Shown here in pieces: positions 11,310 to 29,156 of a DNA stretch of 64,000 bases. The number at the start of each line of letters is the position of its first letter. Position 1 is the stretch's first letter. Both the position numbers and the translations under genes were made by a program. The stretch comes from Escherichia phage KIT03: sequence record AP018932. One strand, written 5' to 3'. The notes beneath the pieces are model-generated. The model saw only the letters and a program-made list of their open reading frames with translations. It had not been told where the DNA came from and ran no database searches.

Positions 11310-12478
11310 GTATGTTACAACGTCCTGGATATCCAAATCTCAGCGTTAAATTATTTGAGAGTTATGACGCTTGGAGTAATAATAGATTTGTTGAATTAGC
11401 TGCTACTATTACCACATTAACTATGCGTGACTCTCTTTATGGTCGAAATGAAGGAATGCTACAATTTTATGATTCTAAAAACATTCATACAAAAATGGAT
11501 GGAAATGAAATAATTCAGATTTCTGTAGCTAATGCAAATGATATTAATAATGTTAAAACACGAATTTATGGATGCAAGCATTTTTCCGTGTCAGTAGATT
11601 CAAAAGGCGATAACATCATTGCTATTGAATTGGGAACTATTCATTCTATAGAAAATCTTAAATTTGGTAGACCATTTTTCCCTGATGCTGGTGAATCTAT
11701 AAAGGAAATGCTTGGTGTCATTTATCAAGACCGCACATTATTAACTCCAGCGATAAATGCTATTAATGCTTATGTTCCTGATATTCCATGGACTAGCACA
11801 TTTGAAAACTATTTGTCATATGTAAGAGAAGTTGCTCTAGCGGTAGGAAGCGATAAGTTCGTATTTGTATGGCAAGACATCATGGGAGTTAACATGATGG
11901 ACTATGATATGATGATAAATCAAGAACCATATCCAATGATTGTAGGTGAGCCAACTTTAATAGGTCAATTCGTCCAAGAATTGAAATATCCATTAGCATA
12001 TGATTTTGTTTGGTTGACTAAATCAAACCCGCATAAACGTGATCCAATGAAAAATGCTACTATCTATGCTCATTCATTTTTAGATTCTTCATTACCAATG
12101 ATTACTACAGGAAAGGGTGAAAACTCTATTGTAGTGTCAAGGTCAGGTGCTTATTCTGAAATGACTTATAGAAATGGATATGAAGAAGCTATTCGTCTTC
12201 AGACTATGGCGCAGTATGATGGTTACGCTAAATGTTCTACTGTCGGTAATTTTAACTTGACTCCCGGCGTTAAAATTATTTTTAATGATAGTAAAAACCA
12301 ATTTAAAACAGAATTTTACGTTGATGAAGTTATTCACGAATTATCAAATAATAATTCCGTAACTCATCTTTATATGTTCACTAATGCAACGAAACTGGAA
12401 ACAATCGACCCAGTTAAGGTTAAAAATGAATTTAAAACTGATACTACCACTGAAGAAAGTAGTTCTTCCGATAAGTAA
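11306..12478 (+). CDS. 27: baseplate hub protein gp27
   Basis: 390-aa ORF. Confidence 0.93.
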
Positions 12479-12959
12479 TAAAGAAGTTTCTATTCCTAAG
12501 ATGGGTCTTAAACATTATAACATTTTAAAAGATGTTAAAGGTCCTGATGAAAATTTAAAGCTTCTTATTGATTCTATTTGTCCAAATTTATCACCGGCAG
12601 AAGTTGATTTCGTTTCTATTCATTTGCTAGAATTTAATGGAAAGATTAAATCTCGTAAAGAAATAGATGGTTATACTTATGATATTAATGACGTTTATGT
12701 ATGCCAAAGATTGGAATTTCAATACCAAGGAAATACATTTTATTTTAGACCTCCTGGAAAATTTGAACAATTTTTAACTGTAAGCGATATGTTATCCAAA
12801 TGCTTGCTTAAGGTCAATGATGAAGTTAAAGAAATTAATTTTCTTGAGATGCCAGCATTTGTTTTAAAATGGGCAAATGATATTTCTACAACTTTAGCAA
12901 TTCCTGGCCCTAATGGTCCAATAACCGGAATTGGCAATATTATTGGATTATTTGAATGA
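12426..12959 (+). CDS. 28: baseplate hub distal subunit gp28
   Basis: ORF 12384..12959; likely start at MNLKL (177 codons), overlapping the gp27 3' end. Confidence 0.85.
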
Positions 12960-14728
12960 AAAAGCCACAAGAAATGCAAACGATGCGTAGAAAAGTTATT
13001 TCAGATAATAAACCAACACAGGAAGCGGCTAAATCCGCTTCTAATACTTTATCTGGTCTTAATGACATTTCTACAAAATTAGATGATGCTCAAGCTGCCT
13101 CTGAATTAATAGCTCAGACTGTTGAAGAAAAATCAAATGAAATAGTTGGAGCAATTGATAACGTTGAAAGCGCAGTAAGTGATACTACTGCCGGTTCTGA
13201 GTTAATTGCTGAAACTGTTGAAATTGGAAACAATATTAATAAAGAAATCGGTGAATCGCTCGGAAGCAAATTAGATAAATTAACAAGTTTACTGGAACAA
13301 AAAATTCAGACAGCTGGAATTCAGCAAACTGGAACGAGTTTAGCAGTAGTCGAAAATGCTATTCCTGTTAAAGTCGTCGAGGATGATACGGCTGAATCTG
13401 TGGGTCCTTTATTACCGGCTCCTGAAACAGTTAATAATGATCCTGATGCTGATTTTTTCCCTACTCCTCATCCAATTGAACCAAAACAAGAGTCTCCAGA
13501 AGAGAAGCAAAAAAGAGACGCATTTAACTTAAAATTATCTCAAGCTTTAGATAAATTAACAAAGACAGTTGATTTCGGATTTAAGAAATCTATTTCAATT
13601 ACTGATAAAATATCTAGCATGCTATTTAAGTATACCGTCAGTGCTGCTATTGAAGCTGCTAAAATGGTTGCATTGATAATGGCTGTTGTTATTGGAATAG
13701 ACCTGCTGATGGTTCATTTTAAATACTGGTCAGATAAATTTTCAAAAGCCTGGGATTTATTTAGCACTGATTTTAAAACTTTCTCAAGCGAAACAGGAAC
13801 TTGGGGTCCTTTATTACAAAGCATCTTTGAATCTATTGATGAAATTAAAAAGTTCTGGGAAGCTGGAGATTGGGGCGGATTAACAGTAGCTATTGTTGAA
13901 GGGCTTGGAAGTGTTCTTTATAATTTAGGAGAGCTTATTCAATTAGGTATGGCTAAATTATCTGCTGCAATTCTTCGAGTCATTCCTGGCATGAAGGATA
14001 CTGCTGATGAAGTAGAAGGAAGAGCATTAGAAAATTTCCAAAATTCTACTGGAGCATCTCTTAATAAAGAAGACCAAGAAAAAGTAGCAAATTATCAAGA
14101 TAAACGAATGAATGACGATCTTGGCCCAATAGCAAAAGGATTAGACAAAATTGCGAACTGGAAAACTCGTGCATCTAACTGGATTCGTGGTGTAGATAAT
14201 AAAGAAGCATTGACTACTGACGAAGAACGTGCAGCAGAAGAAGAAAAATTAAAACAACTTTCACCGGAAGAAAGAAAAAATGCTTTAATGAAAGCTAATG
14301 AAGCTCGTGCTGCGATGATTCGTTTTGAAAAATACGCTGATTCAGCTGATATGAGCAAAGACTCGACAGTTAAATCAATTGAAGCTGCTCATGAAGACCT
14401 TAAAAAACGAATGAATGATCCGGATTTAAATAATTCACCAGCGGTTAAAAAAGAACTTGCTTCTAGATTTGCTAAAATTGATGCCACTTATCAAGAGCTC
14501 AAGAAAAATCAACCTGAAGCAAAACCTGAAACTTCTGCTAAATCACCAGAAGCAAAACAGGTCCAGGTGATTGAAAAGAACAAAGCACAACAAGCTCCTG
14601 TTCAACAAGCATCTCCTTCAATCAATAATACTAATAATGTTATTAAGAAAAATACTGTCGTTCATAATATGACACCTGTCACAAGCACAACTGCTCCTGG
14701 TGTATTTGGTGCGACGGGAGTTAATTAA
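12956..14728 (+). CDS. 29: baseplate hub / tail length determinator gp29
   Basis: 590-aa ORF. Confidence 0.93.
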   Translation: MKKPQEMQTMRRKVISDNKPTQEAAKSASNTLSGLNDISTKLDDAQAASELIAQTVEEKSNEIVGAIDNVESAVSDTTAGSELIAETVEIGNNINKEIGESLGSKLDKLTSLLEQKIQTAGIQQTGTSLAVVENAIPVKVVEDDTAESVGPLLPAPETVNNDPDADFFPTPHPIEPKQESPEEKQKRDAFNLKLSQALDKLTKTVDFGFKKSISITDKISSMLFKYTVSAAIEAAKMVALIMAVVIGIDLLMVHFKYWSDKFSKAWDLFSTDFKTFSSETGTWGPLLQSIFESIDEIKKFWEAGDWGGLTVAIVEGLGSVLYNLGELIQLGMAKLSAAILRVIPGMKDTADEVEGRALENFQNSTGASLNKEDQEKVANYQDKRMNDDLGPIAKGLDKIANWKTRASNWIRGVDNKEALTTDEERAAEEEKLKQLSPEERKNALMKANEARAAMIRFEKYADSADMSKDSTVKSIEAAHEDLKKRMNDPDLNNSPAVKKELASRFAKIDATYQELKKNQPEAKPETSAKSPEAKQVQVIEKNKAQQAPVQQASPSINNTNNVIKKNTVVHNMTPVTSTTAPGVFGATGVN

Positions 14729-14736
14729 GGAATAAT

Positions 14737-15831
14737 ATGGCAATTGTTAAAGAAATAACTGCTGATTTAATTAAAAAGTCCGGTGAAACAATTTCAGCCG
14801 GACAGAGTACTAAATCAGAAGTAGGAACTAAAACATACACAGCCCAGTTTCCAACTGGGCGTGCTAGTGGTAATGACACTACAGGGGACTTCCAGGTAAC
14901 AGATCTATATAAGAATGGATTATTATTTACTGCATACAATATGTCATCTAGGGATTCTGGAAGTCTTAGAACGATGAGATCTAACTACTCTTCTTCATCT
15001 TCGAGTATTTTACGTACAGCCAGAAACACTATCAGTAATACAGTATCAAAACTATCAAATGGACTAATATCAGATAATAATTCAGGAACAATAAGTAAAG
15101 TTCCTGTTGCAAATATTCTTTTACCTAGATCTAAATCTGACGTCGATACGTCATCACATAGATTTAATGATGTTCAAGATAGTCTTATTACAAAAGGCGG
15201 AGGAACTGCTACGGGTGTATTAAGTAATATGGCTTCAACTGCGGTATTTGGTGCGCTTGAAAGTATAACACAAGGAATAATGGCTGATAATAATGAACAG
15301 ATCTATACAACAGCTAGAAGTATGTATGGCGGTGCTGAAAATAGAACAAAAGTGTTCACCTGGGATTTAACTCCGCGCTCAACAGAAGATTTAATGGCTA
15401 TTATTAATATCTATCAGTATTTTAACTATTTTTCTTATGGTGAAACTGGTAAATCTCAATATGCTGCTGAAATAAAAGGATATTTAGATGAGTGGTATCG
15501 TTCTACATTTATTGAACCATTAACGCCAGAAGACGCGATTAAAAACAAGACGTTATTTGAAAAAATGACATCGAGTTTAACGAACGTTCTTGTAGTTTCA
15601 AACCCGACAATTTGGATGGTGAAAAACTTTGGTGCAACTTCTAAATTTGATGGAAAGACTGAAGTATTCGGTCCATGCCAAATACAGAGTATTAGATTTG
15701 ATAAAACACCAAATGGTAACTTTAATGGATTAGCTATTGCTCCTAACCTTCCAAGTTCTTTTACACTCGAGATTACTATGAGAGAGATTATTACGTTAAA
15801 CCGTGCTTCTTTATATACGGGGACTTTCTAA
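14737..15831 (+). CDS. 48: baseplate tail-tube junction protein gp48
   Basis: 364-aa ORF. Confidence 0.93.
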   Translation: MAIVKEITADLIKKSGETISAGQSTKSEVGTKTYTAQFPTGRASGNDTTGDFQVTDLYKNGLLFTAYNMSSRDSGSLRTMRSNYSSSSSSILRTARNTISNTVSKLSNGLISDNNSGTISKVPVANILLPRSKSDVDTSSHRFNDVQDSLITKGGGTATGVLSNMASTAVFGALESITQGIMADNNEQIYTTARSMYGGAENRTKVFTWDLTPRSTEDLMAIINIYQYFNYFSYGETGKSQYAAEIKGYLDEWYRSTFIEPLTPEDAIKNKTLFEKMTSSLTNVLVVSNPTIWMVKNFGATSKFDGKTEVFGPCQIQSIRFDKTPNGNFNGLAIAPNLPSSFTLEITMREIITLNRASLYTGTF

Positions 15832-16796
15832 TGTATTCTTTAGAGGAATTTAATAATCAAGCAATAAACGCAGACTTCCAACGTAATAATATGTTCAGCT
15901 GTGTTTTTGCTACAACTCCATCAACTAAAAGCTCATCGTTAATAAGCTCAATTAGTAACTTTGCTTATAATAACTTGGGTCTAAATTCAGATTGGTTGGG
16001 ATTAACTCAAGGTGATATTAATCAGGGAATTACCACGCTAATTACCGCTGGAACACAAAAACTAATAAGAAAATCGGGAGTCAGTAAATATCTTATTGGC
16101 GCTATGAGTCAGCGTACTGTCCAGAGTTTATTAGGCTCATTTACAGTTGGTACATATTTAATTGACTTCTTTAACATGGCATATAACTCATCTGGATTGA
16201 TGATATATTCTGTAAAAATGCCAGAAAATAGATTATCTTATGAAACTGACTGGAACTATAACTCTCCTAATATTCGTATAACTGGAAGAGAATTAGACCC
16301 TTTGGTTATTTCATTCAGAATGGATTCAGAAGCTTGTAACTATCGTGCAATGCAAGACTGGGTTAACGCTGTTCAAGACCCAGTAACTGGATTGCGTGCT
16401 TTACCGCAAGATGTCGAGGCAGATATTCAGGTTAATCTTCATTCTCGCAACGGATTACCACATACTGCGGTGATGTTCACTGGCTGCATTCCAACATCTG
16501 TGAGTGCTCCTGAGTTATCGTATGATGGAGATAACCAAATAACTACATTTGATGTTACTTTCGCTTATAGAGTCATGCAGGCTGGAGCAGTTGATAGACA
16601 AGCTGCCCTTGAATGGCTTGAATCTGCTACTATAAATGGTATTCAAAGCGTTCTCGGAAATAGTGGAGGTGTTACTGGACTATCTAATTCGCTTTCACGA
16701 CTTAGTAGATTAGGGGGAACTGCAGGAAGCATTTCAAATATTAATACTATGACAGGAATTGTCAATTCGCAGAGTAAAATATTAGGAGCAATATAA
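15831..16796 (+). CDS. 54: baseplate tail-tube initiator gp54
   Basis: 321-aa ORF. Confidence 0.93.
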   Translation: MYSLEEFNNQAINADFQRNNMFSCVFATTPSTKSSSLISSISNFAYNNLGLNSDWLGLTQGDINQGITTLITAGTQKLIRKSGVSKYLIGAMSQRTVQSLLGSFTVGTYLIDFFNMAYNSSGLMIYSVKMPENRLSYETDWNYNSPNIRITGRELDPLVISFRMDSEACNYRAMQDWVNAVQDPVTGLRALPQDVEADIQVNLHSRNGLPHTAVMFTGCIPTSVSAPELSYDGDNQITTFDVTFAYRVMQAGAVDRQAALEWLESATINGIQSVLGNSGGVTGLSNSLSRLSRLGGTAGSISNINTMTGIVNSQSKILGAI

Positions 16797-16800
16797 CAAT

Positions 16801-16830
16801 GGGGACCGAAAGGTCCCCATATTTTTATTT
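16801..16830. terminator. bidirectional hairpin terminator after gene 54
   Basis: GGGGACC-GAAA-GGTCCCC flanked by T-runs on both strands. Confidence 0.65.
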
Positions 16831-17115
16831 ACGGAATGAAATAAAAGCAGCAACTGAAGCAACAGAGGTTTCTTCAATATAAACCTCAATTTTTACCGGA
16901 GCTTCTGACTCAAATTTACCTGTTACTACACCTTGGAAAATACTTTCAGTCTGTTCTGGCTTTGAAAAATTTTCAGAAGGAAAAATTCCAAACTTTTTAT
17001 CGGTTCCGAAAATTTTAATAAATTCATCATAAACTGCTTCATTGAAAGCGTTATCAGCGGGAATAACGCCTTCAACGACGAGTTCTTGACCTAAAAAGCG
17101 CAAAGAAGATTTCAT
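16825..17115 (-). CDS. hypothetical protein upstream of alt region
   Basis: 96-aa ORF with GAGGA RBS immediately downstream of an early promoter. Confidence 0.7.
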   Translation of the reverse strand: MKSSLRFLGQELVVEGVIPADNAFNEAVYDEFIKIFGTDKKFGIFPSENFSKPEQTESIFQGVVTGKFESEAPVKIEVYIEETSVASVAAFISFRK

Positions 17116-17146
17116 TTTGTGTTCCTCATGTTATGTCAGTAAAACT

Positions 17147-17176
17147 ACTATAACACAATACGAGGGACTTGTAAAC
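17147..17176 (-). promoter_or_regulatory. T4-type early promoter (-35 GTTTAC, 18 bp spacer, -10 TATAGT)
   Basis: gtaaac at 17171..17176 and actata at 17147..17152 on the + strand. Confidence 0.6.
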
Positions 17177-19233
17177 TACATTTTGAACTTTTTAGACATT
17201 CCGTTGATGTTAACCAAAGAAGCTAAGATTTGAGAAACTTCGTTTTCCTCTTCTTTTGATTCTTCTACAAGGAATTGATTAAATCCAGCCATTGGACGAA
17301 CTTCACCAGTTTCCATCAGATGGTCGCCATCATATACTGATTCTTCTAATTGTTCAGAAGGAGGAACGATTGTACCTTCGATTAGATACTTGTTATAAGC
17401 AGTTTCTTTCATCATGTACGTACTTACTTTATTAATCTTCAGTAAAATTCCACGCGGCAAAATAACTTCAGCTTCTGATGGAAATCCTGATAAATGACCC
17501 GGAACGATAACTTTGATTCGCTCAGCTCCTTTAATTACCATACCCACGCTAGTTTCAGCATCTTCATTAGCATATGTAGAATGACTACCCATATGCATCA
17601 AATCTTCTGCATCAACAGAACCTTCTCCTTCGCCAGAAAATACTGCACCGGAATCATCTAGAGCCATATAGTTTTTACCATGCTCACCGAAGATATTTGG
17701 TTTAAGTGATGTCGATACGAAGTTCTTGAAATAGAACATTTTATTTTCAATATTGTGACGCAAAGTTTTAAAGGTAACTTCTTGTCCACGGTAAAGTGTA
17801 GTTCCTGGAGGAAGAACTGAACCTTTAGCGAATGCAGAATCCAGCGTCTCAATATGTTTAATAGCTCGTTCCATATATTCTTCACGGGTAGAATCTGGTT
17901 TACCCAAAAGGAACGAGTTCATTTCAACATATGAATCTGCGCAATAATCTTCAATTACGTCAGATTCAGCCTGAGTTAATCCTTTTGGAGTTACTTCAGT
18001 ACTTGCATATTCATATGCCTGAGCGGCAGATTCATTAATCAATTTATAAATGCCATTCATGACAAATTGAATAATAGCTGTCTTTTCATCTGGCGTAGCT
18101 TTAGAACCTTTAACTAAATCATTGATAATTTTCTTAATAACATCAAAGCTATTAGAAATATTAATGTCAGCAAGATCGCTTAAAATTTTATCAGTTTTAT
18201 AATCAAAGAATTCTTTATTCTTTAAATATTCTTGAGAACCTTGATATGTTATATCGCTCTGCAACTTGATAGATGGATCACGTAAACGTGCATGGGCTAA
18301 TGCAATATGATTTCGGAAGTTTTCTAGTTCATAATCGCTAGATTTAAAACGAGAAGCGCTCCTCATACCACCGATAGCTCCTTTGTTGAAGTTTGAACCA
18401 ATCTGAATAACGCCAGAGTTCATTGGTCCTTCTGCTTTATATACCGGAACTTTAGATTCAAACTCTTGATATTTCTTAGCAGCGAAGCTATCACCCTGAA
18501 GTGAAGCATCAACAGTAGAATATTGAGCTTGTGCTGCTAATCGACGACTAATTTTAGTTTTCTGAATAACAGCTTGATCCGTGCGCTTATCATTTTCTAA
18601 GGCAATAGAAGCAGCAACAGCAACAGCTTTAGGAACAGCATTACCTGTTTTAACGTCTACATAAACATCACCAACCTTTGATTCAACTTTTGTGAATAAC
18701 TCAGTTGAAATAGGAGGTACACCTGGAATGTCTTCTAAATTGGCATTTTTACGGTAAACCATAATATATGCATATTTCTTATCATAGTCCCAGATTTCCT
18801 TTAAAAGAACATATCGGCCTGCTCCTTTAGTACGTACTAAACGGTCAGCAATAACTTGCATTTGACGAGCAGCGCCATTTGTTTTACTCTTTAGTACGCG
18901 GAATAAGCATGCATCAATTTTATACTGTTTCATTGTTTGAAGAGCAGTATCAAAAACAGCATTAATGACGCCAATTGGATTTCCACCCAAGTTTCTAAGC
19001 TTAACCAGCGATAATTTCTCGTTGACACCTATCATTACGATATGCATCATTTTATCGCCTGGCTTAACGTTTTTATTTGTATCACCACCAGAGGTGTATG
19101 TACAAAATCTAAATCCAGGAAGCACGCTTTCTTCACCGGCTTGGATAGCAAAAATTTGTGGTATTTTATGCTTAGGATTTAAGTTAACAACCGGCGCCGA
19201 AGCGCCGTCAAATAATTCTGTAATAAGTTCCAT
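17176..19233 (-). CDS. Alt-like ADP-ribosyltransferase paralog (intact, 685 aa)
   Basis: shares N-terminal MELITELFD...CTYTSGGDTN capsid-targeting region with Alt and a C-terminal ART domain carrying R (LYRG), STS (FVSTSL) and E (EAEVILPRG) motifs. Confidence 0.85.
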   Translation of the reverse strand: MELITELFDGASAPVVNLNPKHKIPQIFAIQAGEESVLPGFRFCTYTSGGDTNKNVKPGDKMMHIVMIGVNEKLSLVKLRNLGGNPIGVINAVFDTALQTMKQYKIDACLFRVLKSKTNGAARQMQVIADRLVRTKGAGRYVLLKEIWDYDKKYAYIMVYRKNANLEDIPGVPPISTELFTKVESKVGDVYVDVKTGNAVPKAVAVAASIALENDKRTDQAVIQKTKISRRLAAQAQYSTVDASLQGDSFAAKKYQEFESKVPVYKAEGPMNSGVIQIGSNFNKGAIGGMRSASRFKSSDYELENFRNHIALAHARLRDPSIKLQSDITYQGSQEYLKNKEFFDYKTDKILSDLADINISNSFDVIKKIINDLVKGSKATPDEKTAIIQFVMNGIYKLINESAAQAYEYASTEVTPKGLTQAESDVIEDYCADSYVEMNSFLLGKPDSTREEYMERAIKHIETLDSAFAKGSVLPPGTTLYRGQEVTFKTLRHNIENKMFYFKNFVSTSLKPNIFGEHGKNYMALDDSGAVFSGEGEGSVDAEDLMHMGSHSTYANEDAETSVGMVIKGAERIKVIVPGHLSGFPSEAEVILPRGILLKINKVSTYMMKETAYNKYLIEGTIVPPSEQLEESVYDGDHLMETGEVRPMAGFNQFLVEESKEEENEVSQILASLVNINGMSKKFKM

Positions 19234-19236
19234 GAT

Positions 19237-21330
19237 TTATCCTTGAACGAACTTGTAAGGCATGTTTGTAATATCTATGCAAGACGCAATAATTCCAAGA
19301 GATGATTCTACTTTCTGTTTAACATTTGATGAAACAAATGATGCAAAGTCAACTTTGTCTTCTATTTCAATATCACCTGTCATTGCAACCAATTCACCAG
19401 TTTCCATTAAATGGTCTCCATCATAGATTACCGATTCGGTGAGCTCTTCCGTGGTCATAACTTCAGCTTGAATGAGTTTTGTATTATTAGATGTTGTTCC
19501 GTCATTATTAGAAGCATCAGTTATTTTATTAACCTTGACCATCAATCCGCGTGGTAGAATAACTTCAGCTTCTGTTGCTATTCCGAGACTTCCTGGATAT
19601 ACAACATTAACTTTATGAGCTCCATCAATTGCCCATCCTATTTGAACTTTAACATATTCAGGATTTTCTTTATACGCTCTTATTTCGTTTGGATTAATAG
19701 TTATTCCTTCTTCATTTTTATCAACTGTTAATTCATTGCGAGCTTCTGGTTCTAAAAGACCAATACCAGCATGTGTGATTCCAAAACGTCCAAAAATGAT
19801 AGGAGTTAAAGAAGTAGATACAAAATTTCTGAAGTAGAACACTTTATTTTTAACTAACGCTTCATATATAGGAGCAGTCATACTTTGAGCACGATAAACT
19901 GTAATGCCTTCTGGTATACGGTCACCATTTTCAAAAGCTGAATCTAAGTTATTTATAGCAGATTCAATTTCTTTTTCACTCATTACATCGTATCGTTCTG
20001 GATTGTAACGACCTAAAAGAAGATTATTGATGTCAGTATATCCTGAACCGCAATATTCTCTAATGCCACGCTTTTGTGATGGAGTATATTTAGAACCATC
20101 GCGGGCAATAGTAATATCAATCATTGGACCAGCACCAATTCCAGAAAAACTGTAAATCATTCGTTTGAGGAATTTAGTTTTTGCTGCGTTCCAGGAATTT
20201 TTAGTTATTTCTTCCCAGACTTCATCTGGTTGTCCTTTACGATTTTTATTATGATTAGCAAGCCATTTATCTTTATAATCTTCAAAGAATTGATTTACAG
20301 CTGCTGCGTATTTCTCTAAACATTTTATTGAAGTAGTTGGTTCATTTTTAATTGCATTAAAAATTACTTCTTTAATTTTTTCTGAAACTTCACCGACTTG
20401 ACTCATTGGAAAGAATTTATAATCATAGTGAAGTTCATCTGCCGTTCCTTCAGCAATAATTTTTGCTGCCTTTGTTTTAGAAGCTAATGAATTAATTCCA
20501 ATTTTCATTTCTTCTGCTTCGGGAATTAAAGGTGCAGTAGCTGGTTTATTAAAATTGGCTGCTGTAGATTCATACTTCTGGAATAATTCACTTTCAAATC
20601 TAGAAGATTCCAATGACTGACTTTGTGCAATTGCTCTACGGGAAATTTTAACTTTAACGATTACAGCTTGATCAGAACGTTTATCGTTTTCTTGCGCAAT
20701 AGATGCTGCAATTGCCTCATTTTTAGTTACTTGAGCTCCGGTATCTTTATTGATATAAACATCGCCGACCTTCGATTCAACTTTAGTAAAGAGCTCTGTA
20801 CTAATTTCCGGAACTCCTGGAATGTCTTCTAGTGATACATTTTTGCGATGTATAAGAATATATGCGTACTTTTTATCATAATCCCAGAGTTCCTTAAGAA
20901 GGACGTATCTGCCACCTGAACGACTACGGATAAGTCTATCAGCAATAAGTTGAATTTGACGAGCTTGACCAGCAGTTTTAGACTTAAGAATACGGAGCAT
21001 GCAGGCATCAATTTTATACTGACGCATCGTCTGCATCGCAACAGTAAAAACTGAATTGATGTAATTAATTGGGCTTGGACCGAGACCTTTTAATTTAGCA
21101 ATTGAACCTTTAGCAGTTAATGTAAAAGGAACAATATGCATCATTTTATCGCCCATCTTTAAATCGCGATTAGTATCACCTCCAGATGTATAGGTACATA
21201 AACGAAAGCCTGGTTGTTCAATTGCGTCATCAACATGAACTGAAAAAATTTGCGGTATTTTCTTCTTTGGATTTAAGTTTGTAATCGGAAGAGTAGTATC
21301 TTCGTCAAATAATTCTGTAATGAGTTCCAT
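19237..21330 (-). CDS. alt: internal head ADP-ribosyltransferase Alt
   Basis: 697/698-aa ORF recognised as T4 Alt; R-STS-E catalytic motifs present. Confidence 0.92.
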   Translation of the reverse strand: MELITELFDEDTTLPITNLNPKKKIPQIFSVHVDDAIEQPGFRLCTYTSGGDTNRDLKMGDKMMHIVPFTLTAKGSIAKLKGLGPSPINYINSVFTVAMQTMRQYKIDACMLRILKSKTAGQARQIQLIADRLIRSRSGGRYVLLKELWDYDKKYAYILIHRKNVSLEDIPGVPEISTELFTKVESKVGDVYINKDTGAQVTKNEAIAASIAQENDKRSDQAVIVKVKISRRAIAQSQSLESSRFESELFQKYESTAANFNKPATAPLIPEAEEMKIGINSLASKTKAAKIIAEGTADELHYDYKFFPMSQVGEVSEKIKEVIFNAIKNEPTTSIKCLEKYAAAVNQFFEDYKDKWLANHNKNRKGQPDEVWEEITKNSWNAAKTKFLKRMIYSFSGIGAGPMIDITIARDGSKYTPSQKRGIREYCGSGYTDINNLLLGRYNPERYDVMSEKEIESAINNLDSAFENGDRIPEGITVYRAQSMTAPIYEALVKNKVFYFRNFVSTSLTPIIFGRFGITHAGIGLLEPEARNELTVDKNEEGITINPNEIRAYKENPEYVKVQIGWAIDGAHKVNVVYPGSLGIATEAEVILPRGLMVKVNKITDASNNDGTTSNNTKLIQAEVMTTEELTESVIYDGDHLMETGELVAMTGDIEIEDKVDFASFVSSNVKQKVESSLGIIASCIDITNMPYKFVQG

Positions 21331-21361
21331 CATATCCTCTCTAGTGTTTATTCTATTTATA

Positions 21362-21381
21362 AAATTAAAGGCCCGAAGGCC
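21362..21381 (-). terminator. hairpin terminator (AGGCC-UUCG-GGCCU) between ligase operon and alt
   Basis: GC stem with UUCG loop then UUUAAUUUU on the - strand. Confidence 0.6.
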
Positions 21382-21382
21382 T

Positions 21383-21571
21383 TTAATAATCTATTGGTAA
21401 GAGAGTACGATATATTTCAAACTTTGGACCTTTTTCATAAGCATCAAAAGTTTCTGTGAATTTATTATAAGCATATGCATCTATAAATTCAATCATGATT
21501 TGTGATACAGAAGTAGAAACATCTCCACCTTCTTTTTGAGCCACGACAATTGTTTCTAAGTAAGCTTTCAT
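21383..21571 (-). CDS. hypothetical small protein
   Basis: 62-aa ORF, start overlaps DNA ligase stop. Confidence 0.6.
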   Translation of the reverse strand: MKAYLETIVVAQKEGGDVSTSVSQIMIEFIDAYAYNKFTETFDAYEKGPKFEIYRTLLPIDY

Positions 21572-23031
21572 AAACCAGTTACCTCATGAAAATCACCAAA
21601 TACATCCTCGAATGTATTAGCTTTAGTTTTATCTTCACGCAAACGAATCGCAATTGGAAGAAATAATTTAACGTAATCAGTGCGGCCATCGGATTTTAAC
21701 CAACCGTTGCATTCGCACTCTAGAATTTTTCCAATATAATAATTTTGGTTTTCCATAATGCGAGTACGGTCAAGTTCATGTGATTTTACTCCGGCTTTAT
21801 CTTTTAAGCCTGAACCGGCATTTACCTTAATTTTTCCACACTCTGACTCAAGAATAAATCCACCTGCTTTAGTAGGGTCTTTACGGTGAGGATAAATTCC
21901 TACAATTTTTAAATCAACATCAATTACTTCTTTAAATTTATAGAGATTTTTTGAACGAGCATTTTCCCATAATCCATCGATATTTTTGAGAATAATACCT
22001 TCAAGACCTTGGTCAATATACTTTTTATAAATTACCTTAGCTTCATCTAGGTTATTTACTACTTGGTTTTCAATTAAAATTACTTTATCATATCCTGATG
22101 TCATTTGTTCTAATTTAGAAAAACGTACATCATATTTTAAACGAAATGCTGGAAGACCGTATATTTCTACCAACGGAACATAATCCCAGACCTGAAACTT
22201 CATGCATTGAGCTTCTTTTTCTGAAATAGTTCCCTTTAAAGATTTATTAGCGATTCCATTAGAAGTAGTACGTGATTCAGCTACTTCAGCAAACTCTTTA
22301 GCTTTACTAATTTCAGGATAAGCATCAAAAAGAAAATCTAGGCCTTCTGGCTCCTTTTTAACTTGCTCATGGTATACCAATTCGCCATCAATTAACACAC
22401 CTTCTGGATGAATCTGGCGGGCTTCAGCGGTCATTTTGATTAACTCTTCCTTAAGAAGATCTAATCCTAGATATTCATTACCAGCTCGTGATAAAAGACG
22501 GACATCATCTAATTCATCACCTCTAACTTCAGCAAAACACCGAGCTCCATCTGCTTTTAATTGTGCAAAGGCTGGAAATTTGATATTCTTACTAATGCCT
22601 TTTTCATCATAAGAACTTGCGAGCATTTGAGGTTGTTCAGGAATTAAACTTGGCCAAACTTTGTTTGCAATAGATACTGAAGCACCACATTCAAGGTCTC
22701 GCATCATCACTCGACGCAAAACTTCAACATCATCTTTTTTACCATCGGTGATATATCCAGATAATTCCTCAATTGCCGCATTTCCGGTCAATTTCCGAGT
22801 AGCTAACGTGAATTCAATGAAGTCAAGCATATCGGTAAGAGTCAACATTCCAAAACTCTGGGTAGCAATACCAGATTTAGGCCATTTCTTGATATAATAC
22901 TGCAACCCACGAGAATAAGTCAGACGATATACTCGTTTAAGCAATTCATTATCTTTATTCTTTTCAAGAATTGCTTGCTTCTGCTTAGTTGAACCAATAG
23001 ATGCTATTTCGTTCAGAATTTTAAGAATCAT
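21568..23031 (-). CDS. 30: ATP-dependent DNA ligase gp30
   Basis: 487-aa ORF recognised as T4 DNA ligase; adenylation lysine motif (KADGAR) present. Confidence 0.97.
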   Translation of the reverse strand: MILKILNEIASIGSTKQKQAILEKNKDNELLKRVYRLTYSRGLQYYIKKWPKSGIATQSFGMLTLTDMLDFIEFTLATRKLTGNAAIEELSGYITDGKKDDVEVLRRVMMRDLECGASVSIANKVWPSLIPEQPQMLASSYDEKGISKNIKFPAFAQLKADGARCFAEVRGDELDDVRLLSRAGNEYLGLDLLKEELIKMTAEARQIHPEGVLIDGELVYHEQVKKEPEGLDFLFDAYPEISKAKEFAEVAESRTTSNGIANKSLKGTISEKEAQCMKFQVWDYVPLVEIYGLPAFRLKYDVRFSKLEQMTSGYDKVILIENQVVNNLDEAKVIYKKYIDQGLEGIILKNIDGLWENARSKNLYKFKEVIDVDLKIVGIYPHRKDPTKAGGFILESECGKIKVNAGSGLKDKAGVKSHELDRTRIMENQNYYIGKILECECNGWLKSDGRTDYVKLFLPIAIRLREDKTKANTFEDVFGDFHEVTGL

Positions 23032-23297
23032 TGTTCATCCTTTAGAGTTTGGTTTACAGCTCTATTATAAATCAATTCATCATTAAGCTCAGTCAAAGAC
23101 CTATGGTACGTGGTTCTAACTTTATTTCCTTGCATCCAGTGTTTGACGTAAATGAAACCTTGCTCTACACATTTTTTAAAAATTCGTTCGTCTTTTTGAG
23201 CTCGGAATTCTGGATTGCATCTAAAAAATTGATTTACGTGACCGTAATCACGTGTAGTATTACCTTCATTTTCATAAATAGTGTGAACAACAAACAT
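23028..23297 (-). CDS. 30.1: hypothetical protein
   Basis: 89-aa ORF, translationally coupled. Confidence 0.7.
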   Translation of the reverse strand: MFVVHTIYENEGNTTRDYGHVNQFFRCNPEFRAQKDERIFKKCVEQGFIYVKHWMQGNKVRTTYHRSLTELNDELIYNRAVNQTLKDEQ

Positions 23298-24136
23298 TAG
23301 AATGCTCCTTGGAAAATATTATCACCACTAGTAGGTCTATTATACAAATACTCTATGCCACCAGGTTTAATATAGTTCCATGTCTGAAACGGATGTGTCT
23401 GATATGGATGATATGGATGATTATAAGGATTAAATCCAGGAGTTCTCCAGGTAGTGTTCCAACGAAAAGAATCATTTTTAATCATCTTTTCAATTACATC
23501 TTTTATAGCTTTTTCACTATCAAAACTTTCTTTATTTTCCTTTGGTGAAAAAAGCTTATTCTCTACATCGTTCCATGTATAAACTCGCTGAGCGGTTTTT
23601 GGAATACTGTCACGTTCCCCTCGAGCCATCCAATACACAGGAACACGTAATATTTCACTCGCATGATCGCAATGGTGAGCGAGATCGTCAATATAACAAA
23701 TTACGTTATATTTCTCTTTTGCCTTTTTGAACAACTCTTCTTTTGAAGAATCATGACCACACATCAATACTTCTGAGAAAGCACCAGGAAAAAGAGCATT
23801 CAAATTAAATTGACGATTCAACAGAGCGTCAATAGAATCACCCAATGCTGTAACAGCTACAAAATTATAATCTTCTTTTAATTTGTTAATTACACACAGT
23901 GCATCTTTATATGGAGACAAATAACGAATAAAATCTGATCGATTATATTTTTCAATTAACTTGACACCAAGTTCTTCATCACAATTAAAGAGTTTACCCG
24001 GAGAAATAAATTTCTCATCTTGGATCATTTTTAAAATATGTTCTAACGGAAGATTATATTTCTGAGCAAAATAAGGAAGGCCTGATTGCCAGCTTAAACA
24101 TACCCCGTCAATATCAGTCAAAATAGTAGGCTTCAT
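23297..24136 (-). CDS. 30.2: HAD-superfamily hydrolase-like protein
   Basis: 279-aa ORF; N-terminal DIDGV motif (HAD motif I) and later YIDD; Pro/His/Tyr-rich C-terminus. Confidence 0.75.
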   Translation of the reverse strand: MKPTILTDIDGVCLSWQSGLPYFAQKYNLPLEHILKMIQDEKFISPGKLFNCDEELGVKLIEKYNRSDFIRYLSPYKDALCVINKLKEDYNFVAVTALGDSIDALLNRQFNLNALFPGAFSEVLMCGHDSSKEELFKKAKEKYNVICYIDDLAHHCDHASEILRVPVYWMARGERDSIPKTAQRVYTWNDVENKLFSPKENKESFDSEKAIKDVIEKMIKNDSFRWNTTWRTPGFNPYNHPYHPYQTHPFQTWNYIKPGGIEYLYNRPTSGDNIFQGAF

Positions 24137-24597
24137 AGAGAGTCTCTTAATAGGTTTAACACATCAATAAATTCAGCTTCGGTTAGTATTGTATCATCTT
24201 TTGTTAGACCACTAGCCATGCTGTGCTTCAAAACTTTTCCTTTCGAGGCTAGTAATGCATTACGAAAGCCCTTGTTTTGAATCGCTGCTTCAAAATATGC
24301 ATTTGTGTATAATTCTTTCCACGCCGGGGAGTATCTTGAAAACGGAACTCCGAGCCAGAAGAGGGTCCCACGGTCCTGAGCTCTTGCATAAGACCTTCCA
24401 GCTTGTTGGGCGGCAAGCCCGGATAACCCAAATATACGACGCTGTTGTTCAACATTTTTCACCTTACATCCTTGGAGGAATCCTTCGAGACCTCCAAATT
24501 GGATACCATCCATAACAAAAGGCCATTGGGCGAAATTACTTAATGCACATGATGGCCATCTAAAATTGCTTCTTATCTCTAACTCAGACATTTTCAA
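24133..24597 (-). CDS. 30.3: NADAR/YbiA-like (DUF1768-like) protein
   Basis: 154-aa ORF; LSNF...GGLEGFLQGCK pattern resembles the NADAR family; assignment from memory. Confidence 0.65.
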   Translation of the reverse strand: MKMSELEIRSNFRWPSCALSNFAQWPFVMDGIQFGGLEGFLQGCKVKNVEQQRRIFGLSGLAAQQAGRSYARAQDRGTLFWLGVPFSRYSPAWKELYTNAYFEAAIQNKGFRNALLASKGKVLKHSMASGLTKDDTILTEAEFIDVLNLLRDSL

Positions 24598-24790
24598 TAC
24601 TTATAATTTCAACATCAGCCCAATGACCATAGCAAGGAAGACGAAATTCAACTGGCCAGTTAGGGTCCTTTTCTAATATAATAGACTGAACTTGTGGCTC
24701 TTCATGTTCATCGGTATACGGACCTTTATACGTTACTTTATATGTAACCTTAATGTACTGAATTCCAAAAATCTTATTAATTATATTCAT
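24584..24790 (-). CDS. 30.3': hypothetical protein
   Basis: 68-aa ORF. Confidence 0.6.
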   Translation of the reverse strand: MNIINKIFGIQYIKVTYKVTYKGPYTDEHEEPQVQSIILEKDPNWPVEFRLPCYGHWADVEIISIENV

Positions 24791-24984
24791 ATTAATTCCT
24801 TTAATCCATAGATAGGAGATAATTCATCACCCATACGAAGGTCTTCATTTCCATCTACCCAGGAAACAATATAAGCCTCTTTTATTTGAATACCACTCCA
24901 TTTAAATGGAGGTAGAACCTTAGAAATTAATCCAGGTATACCAACTCCCTTTAATTCAACAGTTTGACCCAAAAAGAATTTCAT
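24787..24984 (-). CDS. 30.4: hypothetical protein
   Basis: 65-aa ORF. Confidence 0.6.
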   Translation of the reverse strand: MKFFLGQTVELKGVGIPGLISKVLPPFKWSGIQIKEAYIVSWVDGNEDLRMGDELSPIYGLKELI

Positions 24985-25271
24985 TAGAACCTCATCTGAA
25001 AACCATGCGATTTAACATTACCGCCGCCAATATCAGAAATGTTAATTTCACGCGCAATTGAAGGGTCAATGTCAATTTCACGATTGAGTTTAGTGATAGC
25101 TAAAGTATCACGCCCATTTACTGTACGGAATTCTAAAGGACAAACCACATCAACGTAATTTTTAATCGATTCACTGGTAGGTTGCAAATGAGCAGGAAGG
25201 CCTTTGGGCGCCTTTGAGAAAACCACTTCACAGAAATTTTTGCGGGTGTCAAAATAAGTAGTCATAAACAT
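24984..25271 (-). CDS. 30.5: hypothetical protein
   Basis: 95-aa ORF with GAGG RBS just downstream of a CUUCGG hairpin. Confidence 0.65.
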   Translation of the reverse strand: MFMTTYFDTRKNFCEVVFSKAPKGLPAHLQPTSESIKNYVDVVCPLEFRTVNGRDTLAITKLNREIDIDPSIAREINISDIGGGNVKSHGFQMRF

Positions 25272-25312
25272 AATATTTTCCTCAGTAAGGGGCCGAAGCC
25301 CCTCATTTATTT

Positions 25313-25690
25313 TTAAATATCAAATTCGTTAAGAACTACATCAAAGATTGCTTCAAGATGCTCAGGTTTAGCTCTGTTACTCAGAATATGACGAATCCAA
25401 GTTTTAACCAAAAGCTTACGATTATCACCATTCCAGCAAGGATGAGTCCCTAAATCGCGTTGACGAAAATCATCATCCAGAGCGATTTTGAAGTTAGAAC
25501 CTTCCATTGTGATTGAAACCGTGATGCCATTTTCAAATCGCATATAAACGTAGTTAGGAGTCATATACTGTTCAATTTCGCATACTGATCCATTTTGATG
25601 TTTCCAAAGGCAAATAGTATCAATAGAACCTGCAATACTATTAGAAACATATTTACGTTCAAAGTTGATGTAGTTCATTTTATTCTCCAA
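25313..25690 (-). CDS. 30.6: hypothetical protein
   Basis: 125-aa ORF. Confidence 0.65.
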   Translation of the reverse strand: MENKMNYINFERKYVSNSIAGSIDTICLWKHQNGSVCEIEQYMTPNYVYMRFENGITVSITMEGSNFKIALDDDFRQRDLGTHPCWNGDNRKLLVKTWIRHILSNRAKPEHLEAIFDVVLNEFDI

Positions 25691-25745
25691 GATGTTTAAT
25701 TGCGGTACAGGTATATAATATCATATCCTGTACCAAAGTAAACAA

Positions 25746-26078
25746 TTATTTTACTACTTTCCAATGCTGCATGTCAAGTTTACCAACTTTTTTCATCTTC
25801 TCAATTAAGCGTTCTGCACGTTGACGAGCTGTAACATAATGCCATTCACCTAATTCATTTTGTTCAATTTTTCCAACGATTACTGTATTCAATTCATAAA
25901 TCCAACCAGTAAAGAAATTATGAACTTGAATAGTAAAGGTGAAATCTGTTCCCATACCTTCTGCTGTTTCTACTTCAATAATATCACCTTCAACTGCCAT
26001 TAAGAACCACATAGTTTCATCATATTTACCATTGAAGCATTTAGTTTTAACTGCAGCGTTCAGATTAATCGTTTTCAT
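25746..26078 (-). CDS. 30.7: hypothetical protein
   Basis: 110-aa ORF downstream of an early-promoter-like element. Confidence 0.65.
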   Translation of the reverse strand: MKTINLNAAVKTKCFNGKYDETMWFLMAVEGDIIEVETAEGMGTDFTFTIQVHNFFTGWIYELNTVIVGKIEQNELGEWHYVTARQRAERLIEKMKKVGKLDMQHWKVVK

Positions 26079-26187
26079 TTTATTCTCCTTTGTTTGTGTA
26101 AGATAATACTATCACAAAGGAGCTTACTGTAAACAACTTTATGCAATCTTTGGAAAATAAAAAAGGACTCCCGAAGGAGTCCTCAAC

Positions 26188-26364
26188 TTATGCTTTCTGC
26201 TTACCAAAACGAGAAGCATCATCTCGAAGAACCGCACGTGCTCGGCGCATGATCTTCTCAACAGTTTGATTGATACGAGAGTTCGACCCACGCTTGTAGC
26301 CAGCGCGTTTAGAATCACCAACTTTCTTTTCAACTGCTTTCTTTGCTTTAACTTGTTTTGCCAT
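26188..26364 (-). CDS. 30.8: small highly basic protein
   Basis: likely start MAKQVKAKK with AAGAG RBS (tracked ORF extends to 26406); Lys/Arg-rich. Confidence 0.55.
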   Translation of the reverse strand: MAKQVKAKKAVEKKVGDSKRAGYKRGSNSRINQTVEKIMRRARAVLRDDASRFGKQKA

Positions 26365-26609
26365 TATAAATTCTCTTTTAAATGAAAATGCAGGACTTAT
26401 TGGCATTGCCTGCGCAAGCCCTCAAGGGGAACATAGGTTTTTGGATATTTAACGACCAGGATAACCATAAACCCGTCATCATTCACATTCAAGAGGTACA
26501 CCGTAAAACTGCCGGGGTCTTAAAACTATAATGATTCGCAAATCATTAATCAGACAGTTCGACGGCTCCTCGATTTTAGCTCACACTAAGGCAGTGAATC
26601 TCCAATAAA

Positions 26610-26858
26610 TTACTTCAATGTTACCACAAAGTGACGAACTGCTTTTCGTGCAGCAGAAGCCAAAGGCTTAGCATATTTAAGTTCATCTTTTTCCTGAAGC
26701 TCAGCAGCTAGTGCAGTTTGAGCAGGATTCAGATGTTTGAAATAACGCAGGATTTCAAGAGCTTCGGCTTCAACATCAATAGATGCGCCATAGTTTTCGT
26801 GACCATTATTCCATGCGTTTCGTTGCAGTTCAAGAGCGTGTTGTAATTGTTTAATCAT
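26610..26858 (-). CDS. rIII: lysis inhibition accessory protein rIII
   Basis: 82-aa ORF recognised as rIII. Confidence 0.9.
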   Translation of the reverse strand: MIKQLQHALELQRNAWNNGHENYGASIDVEAEALEILRYFKHLNPAQTALAAELQEKDELKYAKPLASAARKAVRHFVVTLK

Positions 26859-27005
26859 TTAAAAATTCTCGTTAGAGATTAAAACTCGGTAGTCACGTTC
26901 TTCTGAATTTCATCTTCTTTCGACAGATCTCTCAGTTGTAGACTACCACATAGAATTGTTCGGTTAACTTATTATTCCGACACCCAATTCATATTATTAT
27001 TTATA

Positions 27006-27341
27006 TCACTTATAAAGACACGGAATAGCTTTATAGTGACAAGTAACGAATTTTTGTTTAATTTCTTTTGGCTGCTTAAGACCCAGAGCTACAAAAGGAT
27101 GCGGAACATTTCGAATTTGACCAACTGGAAGAGAAGTCAAATCACCAACTTCGCAGAAACCTTCAGGAACATCAGGACCAACAGAGTGAACTACACACAG
27201 TTCAGGAACTTCACCTTGAGCACGTTTACCGATAATAAGTCCTGATTCTGTAACTTCTTCATCACCGGCTTGTGCAGGTTCAGAAACTAAAATAACATAT
27301 TCACCGACAGCACGAATTGGTAGCTGTTGTACTTCAGACAT
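27006..27341 (-). CDS. 31: co-chaperonin gp31 (GroES analogue)
   Basis: 111-aa ORF recognised as gp31. Confidence 0.93.
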
Positions 27342-27397
27342 CGTTTTTCCTTTTTGTTAACAGATGAATTAATAATAACAAATAATTCTTAAAGCAT

Positions 27398-27706
27398 TTA
27401 TTTACCAATAAATTGGAGTAAATGCTCAACTTTCATACCATTAACAGAAATCAATTTGTCAATAGAAAAACCTCGCCACTCGCCAAGCTCAACATCAAAT
27501 ACTGGAATCATGCCAGTAGATTCTTTCCGAGTAGATTCAGTCAATTTACCGGTTTGCATGGTTGGCATAAAGTCTGCATCACGAGTACCTTTCATAGTAC
27601 GAATAGTACCATCAGACTTTTCAAAAACCACGTTTGAAATACCCATGGACAATTTAGTTTTCAAAATTTCACGAATTGCTACTTTCTGTTCAGTTGTCAG
27701 TTTCAT
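27398..27706 (-). CDS. 31.1: hypothetical protein
   Basis: 102-aa ORF. Confidence 0.65.
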   Translation of the reverse strand: MKLTTEQKVAIREILKTKLSMGISNVVFEKSDGTIRTMKGTRDADFMPTMQTGKLTESTRKESTGMIPVFDVELGEWRGFSIDKLISVNGMKVEHLLQFIGK

Positions 27707-27943
27707 TTATTTACCTATTACAGTTTTAATATGAGTTGTTCCACGTTCTTTAAGAGTGGAAAGCAACTTTTGGCATTTTTCTAAATCAGATTTCCAACTA
27801 TACGGCCTATCAATACAAACCCATTCTGACTTATAATACTGTTTCCATTTAGAGAAAAAATATTTCTTATACTCTACAGCAAATGAAATGTTCTCGTTAG
27901 AATAAGAACTAATTGCTGTGAGCTGTACCAAACGAAATTTCAT
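27707..27943 (-). CDS. 31.2: hypothetical protein
   Basis: 78-aa ORF. Confidence 0.6.
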   Translation of the reverse strand: MKFRLVQLTAISSYSNENISFAVEYKKYFFSKWKQYYKSEWVCIDRPYSWKSDLEKCQKLLSTLKERGTTHIKTVIGK

Positions 27944-28524
27944 TATTCACCACAGAATTCGTTGATATTTTCCCAGTTTAACTTATTCAAGTTTTTCTTA
28001 GGAACATTAAACACTTCAATACCTGCATTTCGCAGAATATCATCCCAGCCAGGTTTATTTTTATCGTATGTTTCACAATAAACCAACTTTTTAATTCCAG
28101 ATTGAGCTATCGCTTTTGCACAATCTGGGCAAGGAGAAAGTGTTACATACATAGTAGCACCTTCAATAGAAGAACCATTTCGTGCAGCAAACAAAATTGC
28201 ATTTAGTTCAGCATGAATTTCATTTTTAGACGACCATTCAGAGTGAGCGCTCCGGTGTTCTTTTGCCAAGATAAAACGATCAGTTGAACCAAATGATACA
28301 CATTCGGGCTTATGACCTTGGATGATAGTATGTTTAGGTTTATTCAGCAACCAACCTTGCTCGGCGGCATAATCACAACAGTTCACACCACCAGCAGGTG
28401 AACCATTATATCCGGTAGAAATAATACGTCCATTCTTTTCAATTACTGCTCCTACCTTCCAGGAGCAACATTTTGATTCTTGTGATACTAAATATGCAAT
28501 TTGAAGTACTGTACTCGCTTTCAT
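27943..28524 (-). CDS. cd: dCMP deaminase
   Basis: 193-aa ORF with cytidine/deoxycytidylate deaminase zinc motifs (HAE...PCPDC). Confidence 0.95.
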   Translation of the reverse strand: MKASTVLQIAYLVSQESKCCSWKVGAVIEKNGRIISTGYNGSPAGGVNCCDYAAEQGWLLNKPKHTIIQGHKPECVSFGSTDRFILAKEHRSAHSEWSSKNEIHAELNAILFAARNGSSIEGATMYVTLSPCPDCAKAIAQSGIKKLVYCETYDKNKPGWDDILRNAGIEVFNVPKKNLNKLNWENINEFCGE

Positions 28525-28859: not shown

Positions 28860-29095
28860 AGTACGCCATACACCCTTTGTGCTTCAACTAATCCATCAAA
28901 ATCCAATTTGAGATGTGTTATTTGATCACCATCACCTGGATTCACAATTACTAATACTGAACGAGGAGTTTCGGTAATAACACGAACCGATGTTTCAGGA
29001 AATCGTTCAGAAACCTTATTTACCAATTCCTGGGCAAATAGTTTAACTTTTTCTTGGAATTCTTTAACAGTAATCGGTTTTTCACTTAGCAGCAT
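28856..29095 (-). CDS. cd.2: hypothetical protein
   Basis: 79-aa ORF downstream of an early-promoter-like element. Confidence 0.65.
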   Translation of the reverse strand: MLLSEKPITVKEFQEKVKLFAQELVNKVSERFPETSVRVITETPRSVLVIVNPGDGDQITHLKLDFDGLVEAQRVYGVL

Positions 29096-29156
29096 TTTGT
29101 TTTCCTCATTTGTTTGGTAGAGCTATAATATCACAACTCTACCGTAAAGTAAACTA

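Follow-up and report, generated by a model that had tools for sequence, protein, structure and literature searches.

One question that the alt locus of the T-even phages raises is how many ADP-ribosyltransferases (ARTs) these viruses deliver into their hosts. T4 is described, correctly, as having a single Alt (NP_049811), which is packaged in the head and injected, whereas the 64,000-nucleotide stretch of Escherichia phage KIT03 analysed here (sequence record AP018932; hereafter the window, to which all positions refer) carries two alt-like genes side by side. The source of the window is a T-even phage of the genus Tequatrovirus, and its alt locus has the two-gene form that is usual for the genus. 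The listing of open reading frames (ORFs) gives exactly the two adjacent minus-strand frames reported in the initial annotation, which are referred to below as AltB (17176-19233, 685 amino acids (aa)) and AltA (19237-21333, 698 aa) and are separated by a gap of 3 nucleotides (nt). The best explanation of this arrangement, which is held here with considerable confidence, is that both genes of this usual Tequatrovirus pair encode functional arginine-type mono-ARTs that are probably packaged and likely have different targets.

From the perspective of homology, both products belong to the T4 Alt family. They are 41% identical to each other over their full length (BLASTP, E 1e-162), far above chance, and PHROG 802 ('Alt-like RNA polymerase ADP-ribosyltransferase') covers the entire length of each (E 6e-273 for AltA and 1e-256 for AltB). 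Pfam family PF03496 (ADP-ribosyltransferase exoenzyme) is also detected in both of them, with 129.9 bits in AltA and 72.6 bits in AltB against a gathering score of 23.4 bits. NCBIfam holds no model for either protein, and the precomputed annotation of the homologues gives PF26846 as a second domain. Over the full length, T4 Alt shares 71% of its residues with AltA and 41% with AltB, so that AltA, the upstream paralogue, is the orthologue of T4 alt. It is also its positional counterpart, as the pair fills the slot between alt.1/gene 30 and alt.-3/gene 54 like the T4 Alt family, and it keeps the same catalytic motifs and the same motifs for the head protease gp21. The 698-aa ORF of AltA opens with MMELITE; T4 has the same ATGATG, and in the T4 and RB51 records the gene begins at the second of the two codons. 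Since this annotation agrees with the published numbering of the ITE-6 cleavage, AltA probably starts at 21330 and yields a product of 697 aa.

The catalytic motifs that had been recognised in both ORFs are also intact upon careful alignment to T4 Alt and to the toxin CdtA, and consist of an arginine, an S-T-S motif and an E-x-E pair. In AltB, these are R482 within LYRG (17788-17790), S507-T-S509 (17707-17715) and E587-A-E589 (17467-17475), all with checked coordinates. In AltA, they are the arginine of VYRA (R480 in the 697-aa numbering, R481 in the 698-aa numbering; 19891-19893), S505-T-S507 (S506-T-S508; 19810-19818) and E587-A-E589 (E588-A-E590; 19564-19572), and the three-way alignment places their T4 Alt equivalents at R478, S503-T-S505 and E574-M-E576. 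HMMER aligns AltA with the solved toxins CdtA and iota Ia, both of which it matches at the sequence level, so that the arginine of VYRA falls on the YR arginine (TVYR in CdtA) and EAEV falls on E-Y-E. The catalytic glutamate that the initial annotation had assigned to EAEVILPRG is therefore present, but as part of an E-x-E pair rather than as a single residue. E-x-E is the signature of arginine-directed enzymes in this clade, and on the strength of these alignments both genes are predicted to encode arginine-type mono-ADP-ribosyltransferases of the T4 Alt family. T4 Alt no longer ADP-ribosylates when its catalytic glutamate is mutated (E577A in the published numbering; PMC11404850); this residue is assumed to be E576 of the RefSeq protein, the second glutamate of E-x-E, with the one-residue offset coming from the upstream ATG.

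A sequence search of AltB against the chains of the PDB gave no match, and its fold was therefore assessed through a predicted model. The AlphaFold (AF2) model, built on a shallow alignment of 13 sequences, has a mean predicted local distance difference test (pLDDT) score of 74, with the ART region mostly between 80 and 90. Its comparison with the PDB by Foldseek retrieves Vis, C3 (C3bot), Certhrax, CDTa and VIP2 with a probability of 1.0, and with target-normalised TM-scores of 0.54-0.66 for single-domain ARTs and of about 0.3 for longer multi-domain chains. By prediction, AltB thus adopts the ART fold, and Pfam, the model and Foldseek place the β-core at residues 471-628 (17350-17823). The toxins of the R-S-E type (C3, iota Ia, CDTa, VIP2, Vis and Certhrax) share this fold and the R, S-T-S and E-x-E motifs with the Alt pair, but only 14-20% of their residues; they rely on secretion or on a binary partner where Alt is delivered by the phage head, and, unlike them, the Alt proteins have an extra N-terminal domain and propeptides. 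Iyer and Aravind assign Alt to an Alt/VIP2 clade (PMC5512222).

Regarding their general architecture, the two proteins would share one layout, in which a short MELITE propeptide is followed by the N-terminal domain specific to Alt, then by a helical region and the ART domain of the R-S-E type, with a second propeptide at the C-terminus. The prohead core contains about 40 copies of T4 Alt (PMC9958956, PMC11404850), which is dispensable for head assembly and is trimmed by gp21 (PMC9958956). Mass spectrometry has located the cuts at ITE-6 and LTE-619, the second of which removes 63 C-terminal residues (PMC5694885). The motifs of both sites are kept, at the sequence level, in AltA and in AltB. In AltA, the equivalents are I-T-E at 21313-21321 and L-T-E at 19435-19443, identified by motif and by alignment, respectively, with reference to the published T4 sites (PMC5694885). 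In AltB, the N-terminal MELITE (19216-19233) is predicted to be removed at ITE-6, and an L-E-E that fits L-x-E (17341-17349) is the predicted C-terminal gp21 site, with the cut after E631, just ahead of a conserved SV(I)YDGDHLMETGE. In the AltB model, disorder sets in at residue 629, where the predicted C-terminal propeptide begins (residues 632-685; 17179-17340; pLDDT below 50); this propeptide is homologous to the 63 residues trimmed from T4 Alt. The N-terminal α/β domain of AltB (residues 7-236; 18526-19215; pLDDT 85), whose model has no convincing fold match in the PDB, would presumably serve in packaging the protein into the head core.

The conservation of these elements was followed in a family set of 59 diverse Alt-length proteins with the Alt N-terminal domain (58 representatives and AltB). 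In their alignment, the positions conserved in at least 90% of the sequences include E6, R482, S507, S509, E587, E589 and E631 (AltB numbering), that is, both predicted cleavage sites as well as the catalytic residues. The domain itself is found in just 69 representative clusters among 1.84 billion proteins, nearly all of 600-712 aa, and occurs only at the N-terminus of Alt-length proteins. A delivery module comparable to those of polymorphic toxins, with many effector families attached, was also considered and rejected, as 57 of the 59 proteins scanned carry PF03496 and none carries any other Pfam family. A weaker resemblance does hold, with conserved ends that flank an exchangeable internal ART cassette.

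These data bear on two alternative roles for AltB. In the first, AltB would be an active but unpackaged ART that acts late in the producing cell, as the non-packaged ModA and ModB do after their own synthesis. Literature searches, which gave no proteomic evidence for AltB in virions, are compatible with such a role, but AltB has retained both the N-terminal domain typical of Alt and the motifs ITE-6 and L-x-E, with both cleavage glutamates near-invariant, and it lies behind a probable late promoter in a neighbourhood of virion genes, all of which makes this alternative quite improbable. ModA and ModB of T4, R-S-E ARTs that are paralogues from the same group of phages (PMC5512222), are small, early and unpackaged proteins with neither the Alt N-terminal domain nor the gp21 sites. 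In the second, AltB would chiefly play a structural part in the head core and have a vestigial catalytic function, as might be proposed from the presence of T4 Alt in the prohead core; this is very hard to reconcile with catalytic residues (R, S, S, E and E) that are near-invariant in 59 diverse relatives and with a head that assembles without T4 Alt, and is regarded as highly improbable. The reading in which AltB is packaged as an active enzyme is thus preferred to both of them.

The N-terminal region shared by the two proteins is 67% identical and extends to about residue 238. As had also been noticed at the outset, the remainder has diverged substantially: identity drops to about 14% in the centre, which in AltB is an all-helical region (residues 240-470; 17824-18516), and is about 33% in the ART domain and about 43% in the C-terminal tail. 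Because the helical region and the active-site loops differ almost completely, AltA and AltB would most likely modify different host proteins, and two injected enzymes with distinct targets are plausible from their sequences. AltB could instead be active and packaged but redundant with AltA, modifying the same targets (for example, the α subunit of RNA polymerase) as an extra dose or a backup. The shared catalytic motifs and the similarity of the N-terminal domains are consistent with redundancy, as is the vigour of the T4 lineage, which lacks AltB through a deletion common to 91 records. Nevertheless, redundancy is considered unlikely: despite their divergence in the centre and in the ART domain, each type shows a ratio of nonsynonymous to synonymous substitution rates (dN/dS) of about 0.05 or less, and the B type persists as a separate lineage across two genera, while homogenisation or decay would be the expected fate of redundant copies.

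AltB orthologues are under strong purifying selection, with pairwise dN/dS values of 0.05-0.08 among the window, RB51 and SH7; for AltA, the comparison of the window with RB51 gives 0.025. About 400 phage records contain the C-terminal 446 aa of AltB at an identity of at least 95%, and the protein cluster of AltB at 90% identity has 772 member sequences. At the DNA level, a megablast search with the locus matched 539 phage records, 346 of which cover at least 80% of the query, and many of the matched records are annotated as 'Alt-like RNA polymerase ADP-ribosyltransferase (x2)'. The possibility that AltB is a duplicate on its way to becoming a pseudogene draws on its inactivation in the T4 lineage; for the gene in this window it is refuted by the intact frame of 685 codons, the dN/dS values and the roughly 400 conserved records, and hardly any weight is given to it.

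The T4 lineage itself shows how the second gene was lost. The small T4 ORFs alt.-1 and alt.-2 (NP_049810 and NP_049809), which the initial annotation had suggested to be remnants of this paralogue, are the same gene as AltB, broken in T4 and intact in the window. Over the first 348 nt of the AltB gene, the T4 DNA matches the window with 94.5% identity (397 nt are aligned when the upstream sequence is included), and the remnant also retains the last 20 nt of the gene beyond a deletion. Two lesions separate it from the intact form. The first is a frameshift: a run of five A residues has been shortened by one in T4 (AATAAAAAC to AATAAAAC), which splits the frame into alt.-1 and alt.-2. The second is a deletion of about 1.69 kb between the imperfect 9-bp repeats CTAAAGAGT and CTAAAAAGT, visible at positions 7105-7113 of the T4 locus (L001) as a leap of the match from position 18886 to position 17195 of the window, so that the part of AltB missing from T4 corresponds to 17196-18885 (minus strand). 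Both lesions are absent from the window, where AltB is an uninterrupted ORF, and T4 has no intact second copy of the gene. As this comparison shows, alt.-1 and alt.-2 are the remains of a full-length paralogue, AltB, and not of T4 alt itself, in contrast to the RefSeq note for T4, which describes them as 'an old duplication of the first part of gene alt'. Comparison of the remnant with intact copies gives 16.5 synonymous and 3.5 nonsynonymous differences (pN/pS 0.06), and this predominance of synonymous changes suggests that the loss of AltB in the T4 lineage is recent. The frameshift site corresponds to positions 19072-19076 of the window (minus strand; AltB codons 53-55), and such a run of A residues is a type of site prone to polymerase slippage; alt does not feature in a preprint about contingency loci of phages. 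The deletion junction is common to 91 records, compared with about 400 that have an intact AltB, and T4, with its single Alt, represents a minority state in its genus.

Copy number varies among relatives. Two copies are present in RB51, T2 and T6 (685 and 697 aa), in SH7 (a T4-type AltA together with AltB) and in Dhakavirus JS98; three are present in Dhakavirus AnYang, and one in Mosigvirus WFK, Karamvirus CC31 and phage JK45. The pairs of T2, T6, RB51, SH7, wV7 and 6phi13 consist of the same genes in the same order and with the same sizes, with essentially no difference from the window, which is 94.8-97.4% identical in DNA to known tandem alt loci. For positions 12000-30000 of the window, the identity amounts to 94.8% with T2 (longest block), 95.1% with T6 and 97.4% with RB51 over 13802-24603, and the best matches of the alt locus (Kelasse and ESh33) reach 97.8-98.0%. 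As these identities top out at 98.0%, the phage is a distinct Tequatrovirus isolate and none of the classic strains. With respect to JK45, the single alt gene of this Shigella phage (NC_054940; locus L008, 2751-4838) is 98-100% identical to that of Mosigvirus WFK in every region, while the phage is recorded as a Tequatrovirus and its Alt N-terminal domain is just 43-46% identical to those of Tequatrovirus; either the alt locus of JK45 was transferred, or the classification of this phage is in need of review.

Comparison with the genus Dhakavirus indicates that the alt genes are mosaics. Tandem full-length Alt paralogues occupy the same genomic slot in JS98, AnYang and the Aeromonas phage 44RR, and the duplication in 44RR has been noted previously (PMC1524935). 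According to its N-terminal domain (residues 7-236), each protein groups by genus, with AltA and AltB of Tequatrovirus 67% identical to each other and each only 41-47% identical to the Dhakavirus copies. In the table of regional identities, the centre, the ART domain and the C-terminal propeptide group instead by type across genera. AltB is closer in these three regions to the downstream copy of JS98 and to copy 3 of AnYang (46-48% in the centre, 55% in the ART domain and 61-67% in the C-terminal propeptide) than to the neighbouring AltA (14%, 33% and 43%, respectively), and the B-type effector carried by those two Dhakavirus copies is 46-55% identical to that of AltB. Similarly, copy 1 of AnYang carries the A-type ART of the window, with 94% identity to the ART domain of AltA, which is only 65% identical to that of T4 Alt. 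The N-terminal 240 aa and the C-terminal tail of AltA are about 99% identical to T4 Alt, whereas the centre is 32% identical, so that the internal 380 aa of AltA represent a different allele from that of T4, closer to the Dhakavirus gene. AltB, which has the whole architecture of T4 Alt, belongs to a separate and older effector lineage.

The boundaries of the exchanged segment can be followed in the DNA, where identity was calculated in windows of 90 columns (about 90 nt). The variable internal cassette of AltA, which comprises the helical centre and the ART domain (19476-20616, minus strand; gene nt ~715-1855), is 34-76% identical to T4 alt and 63-95% identical to AnYang copy 1, while the flanks (nt 1-714 and ~1856-2094) are 91-99% identical to T4 alt and 38-77% identical to AnYang copy 1. 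The flanks of AnYang copy 1 are, for their part, 84-97% identical to JS98. Rate differences were rejected as the cause of this pattern, since they cannot yield such a conflict between flanks and cassette, and the conflict argues that the internal helical-plus-catalytic cassette was exchanged between phage genera by recombination, with the genus-specific ends as the likely recombination sites. By the same regional comparison, the A and B effector types predate the split between Tequatrovirus and Dhakavirus. The three tandem full-length Alt-like genes of AnYang (NC_055782; locus L005, 4251-10511) encode proteins of 694, 681 and 707 aa, and the effector of the middle copy is a third type, just ~39% identical to every other type examined.

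The novelty that the initial annotation implied for the pair does not stand. Hundreds of annotated records, the RefSeq note for T4 and two publications precede it: Nolan et al. 2006 listed alt paralogues in RB49 and 44RR together with the case of alt.-1/alt.-2 in T4 (PMC1524935), and a 2026 paper described two Alt-like paralogues with 43% identity in the Tequatrovirus 6phi13, along with the same speculation about an expanded target range (PMC13600099). Petrov et al. 2010 do not discuss alt. The tandem pair is the normal state of T-even phages, already annotated and published. The searchable literature contains only genome-annotation remarks on the second paralogue, with no experimental study and no virion proteomics devoted to it.

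Concerning expression, a motif search identifies the T4 late-promoter motif TATAAATA at 21354-21361 (minus strand), 20 nt upstream of the AltA ORF. Given the established T4 late-promoter consensus, this motif is inferred to be the late promoter of the pair. Slightly upstream, a G+C-rich hairpin read from the sequence (AAAGGCC-TTCG-GGCCTTT followed by AATTTT; 21367-21384, minus strand) resembles a terminator and overlaps the stop codon of alt.1. A scan for the terminator consensus does not flag it, but related records annotate a terminator at this position, and five of six genomes have conserved one ahead of alt (PMC1524935). The 3-nt gap between AltA and AltB contains no promoter. A Shine-Dalgarno-like AAGGA for AltB lies within the last codons of AltA (19240-19244, minus strand), 6 nt before the ATG of AltB, and this ribosome-binding site inside the end of AltA, together with the short gap, suggests that translation of AltB is coupled to that of AltA. 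A second TATAAATA, internal to AltA (19950-19957), was discounted as a promoter for AltB, as about one such 8-mer is expected by chance in 5 kb of DNA that is rich in A and T. Likewise, matches to σ70-like promoters are not in excess in the region (20, against 18.8 expected from shuffled sequence); one of them, with an extended -10 element (TTTACA, 17 nt, TG-TATAGT; 17175-17147), lies just upstream of alt.-3. This last gene follows directly after AltB and apparently belongs to the same transcription unit, and a scan of both strands detects a bidirectional terminator hairpin between it and gene 54, which is on the plus strand (16799-16820). The simplest reading is a single late transcript that spans AltA, AltB and alt.-3.

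Taken as a mechanism, the preferred reading of two packaged enzymes would proceed as follows. Late transcription would be driven by the one TATAAATA promoter upstream of AltA and run through AltA, AltB and alt.-3 to the terminator at 16799-16820, with AltB translated by coupling to AltA. Both proteins would probably be built into the prohead core, as T4 Alt is, and gp21 would trim them at both ends, after ITE-6 and after either LTE (AltA) or LEE-631 (AltB). The mature enzymes would then be ejected with the DNA into the next host, where they would ADP-ribosylate host proteins, most likely different ones, at the expense of NAD+. Several points weigh against this scheme. AltB lacks a late promoter of its own, and its co-transcription with AltA is assumed. 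Its production, packaging, cleavage, injection and activity are all projected from sequence, its structure is a prediction subject to the shallow alignment and the mean pLDDT given above, and the distinct target specificities are deduced from sequence divergence alone. The domain trees are unbootstrapped neighbour-joining trees, and the identity tables were relied on over the tree topology for this reason. Finally, the 91 T4-like records without AltB imply that this gene is dispensable, at least on laboratory hosts.

The genomic neighbourhood corresponds to the baseplate/alt/ligase region of T4, with gp29-, gp48- and gp54-like ORFs on the plus strand and with alt.-3, AltB, AltA, alt.1 and the DNA ligase gene on the minus strand. 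The alt.1 homologue upstream of the pair (21383-21571, minus strand; 62 aa) has the same position as in T4 and RB51 and matches Pfam PF24647 ('Phage blade protein') with an E-value of 7.5e-29; it is adjoined by the DNA ligase gene 30 (21568-23031, minus strand). At the other end, the last gene of the unit is the alt.-3 homologue (16825-17115, minus strand; 96 aa), identified by its ORF, by its Pfam domain (DUF5498) and by comparison with T4, in which mutations that extend the C-terminus of Alt.-3 allow escape from the CmdTAC defence system (PMC11618068). Elsewhere in the window (50661-54813, plus strand), a gp37-like ORF of 1108 aa is followed by an ORF of 274 aa. In T4, gp37 has 1026 aa and gp38 has 183 aa, and the ORF sizes alone suggest that the 274-aa ORF is a gp38 adhesin of the T2/T6 type and not a chaperone of the T4 type.

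As a genome observation, the pair is ordinary, and it is the role of the conserved second enzyme that is of experimental interest. Nearly all experimental knowledge of injected phage ARTs comes from T4, which is atypical for its genus and was only recently left without the second enzyme, while T2, T6 and roughly 400 relatives retain a second Alt that is strongly conserved and whose substrate-facing region is very different. A broader view can be proposed tentatively, with belief in it falling slightly short of an even balance: most T-even phages would inject two different ARTs, and some perhaps three, with the B type directed at host targets distinct from those of T4 Alt, possibly including defence proteins, and alt would be an effector-diversification locus whose cassette is swapped between genera by way of the conserved flanks that code for the N-terminal domain and the C-terminal propeptide. 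If AltB is indeed injected and has its own targets, the early host takeover by typical T-even phages departs from the textbook picture of T4, and what is known about Alt from T4 covers half of the normal set of injected ARTs. This could have effects on host range and on the evasion of bacterial defences in a group of phages of which many are used therapeutically.

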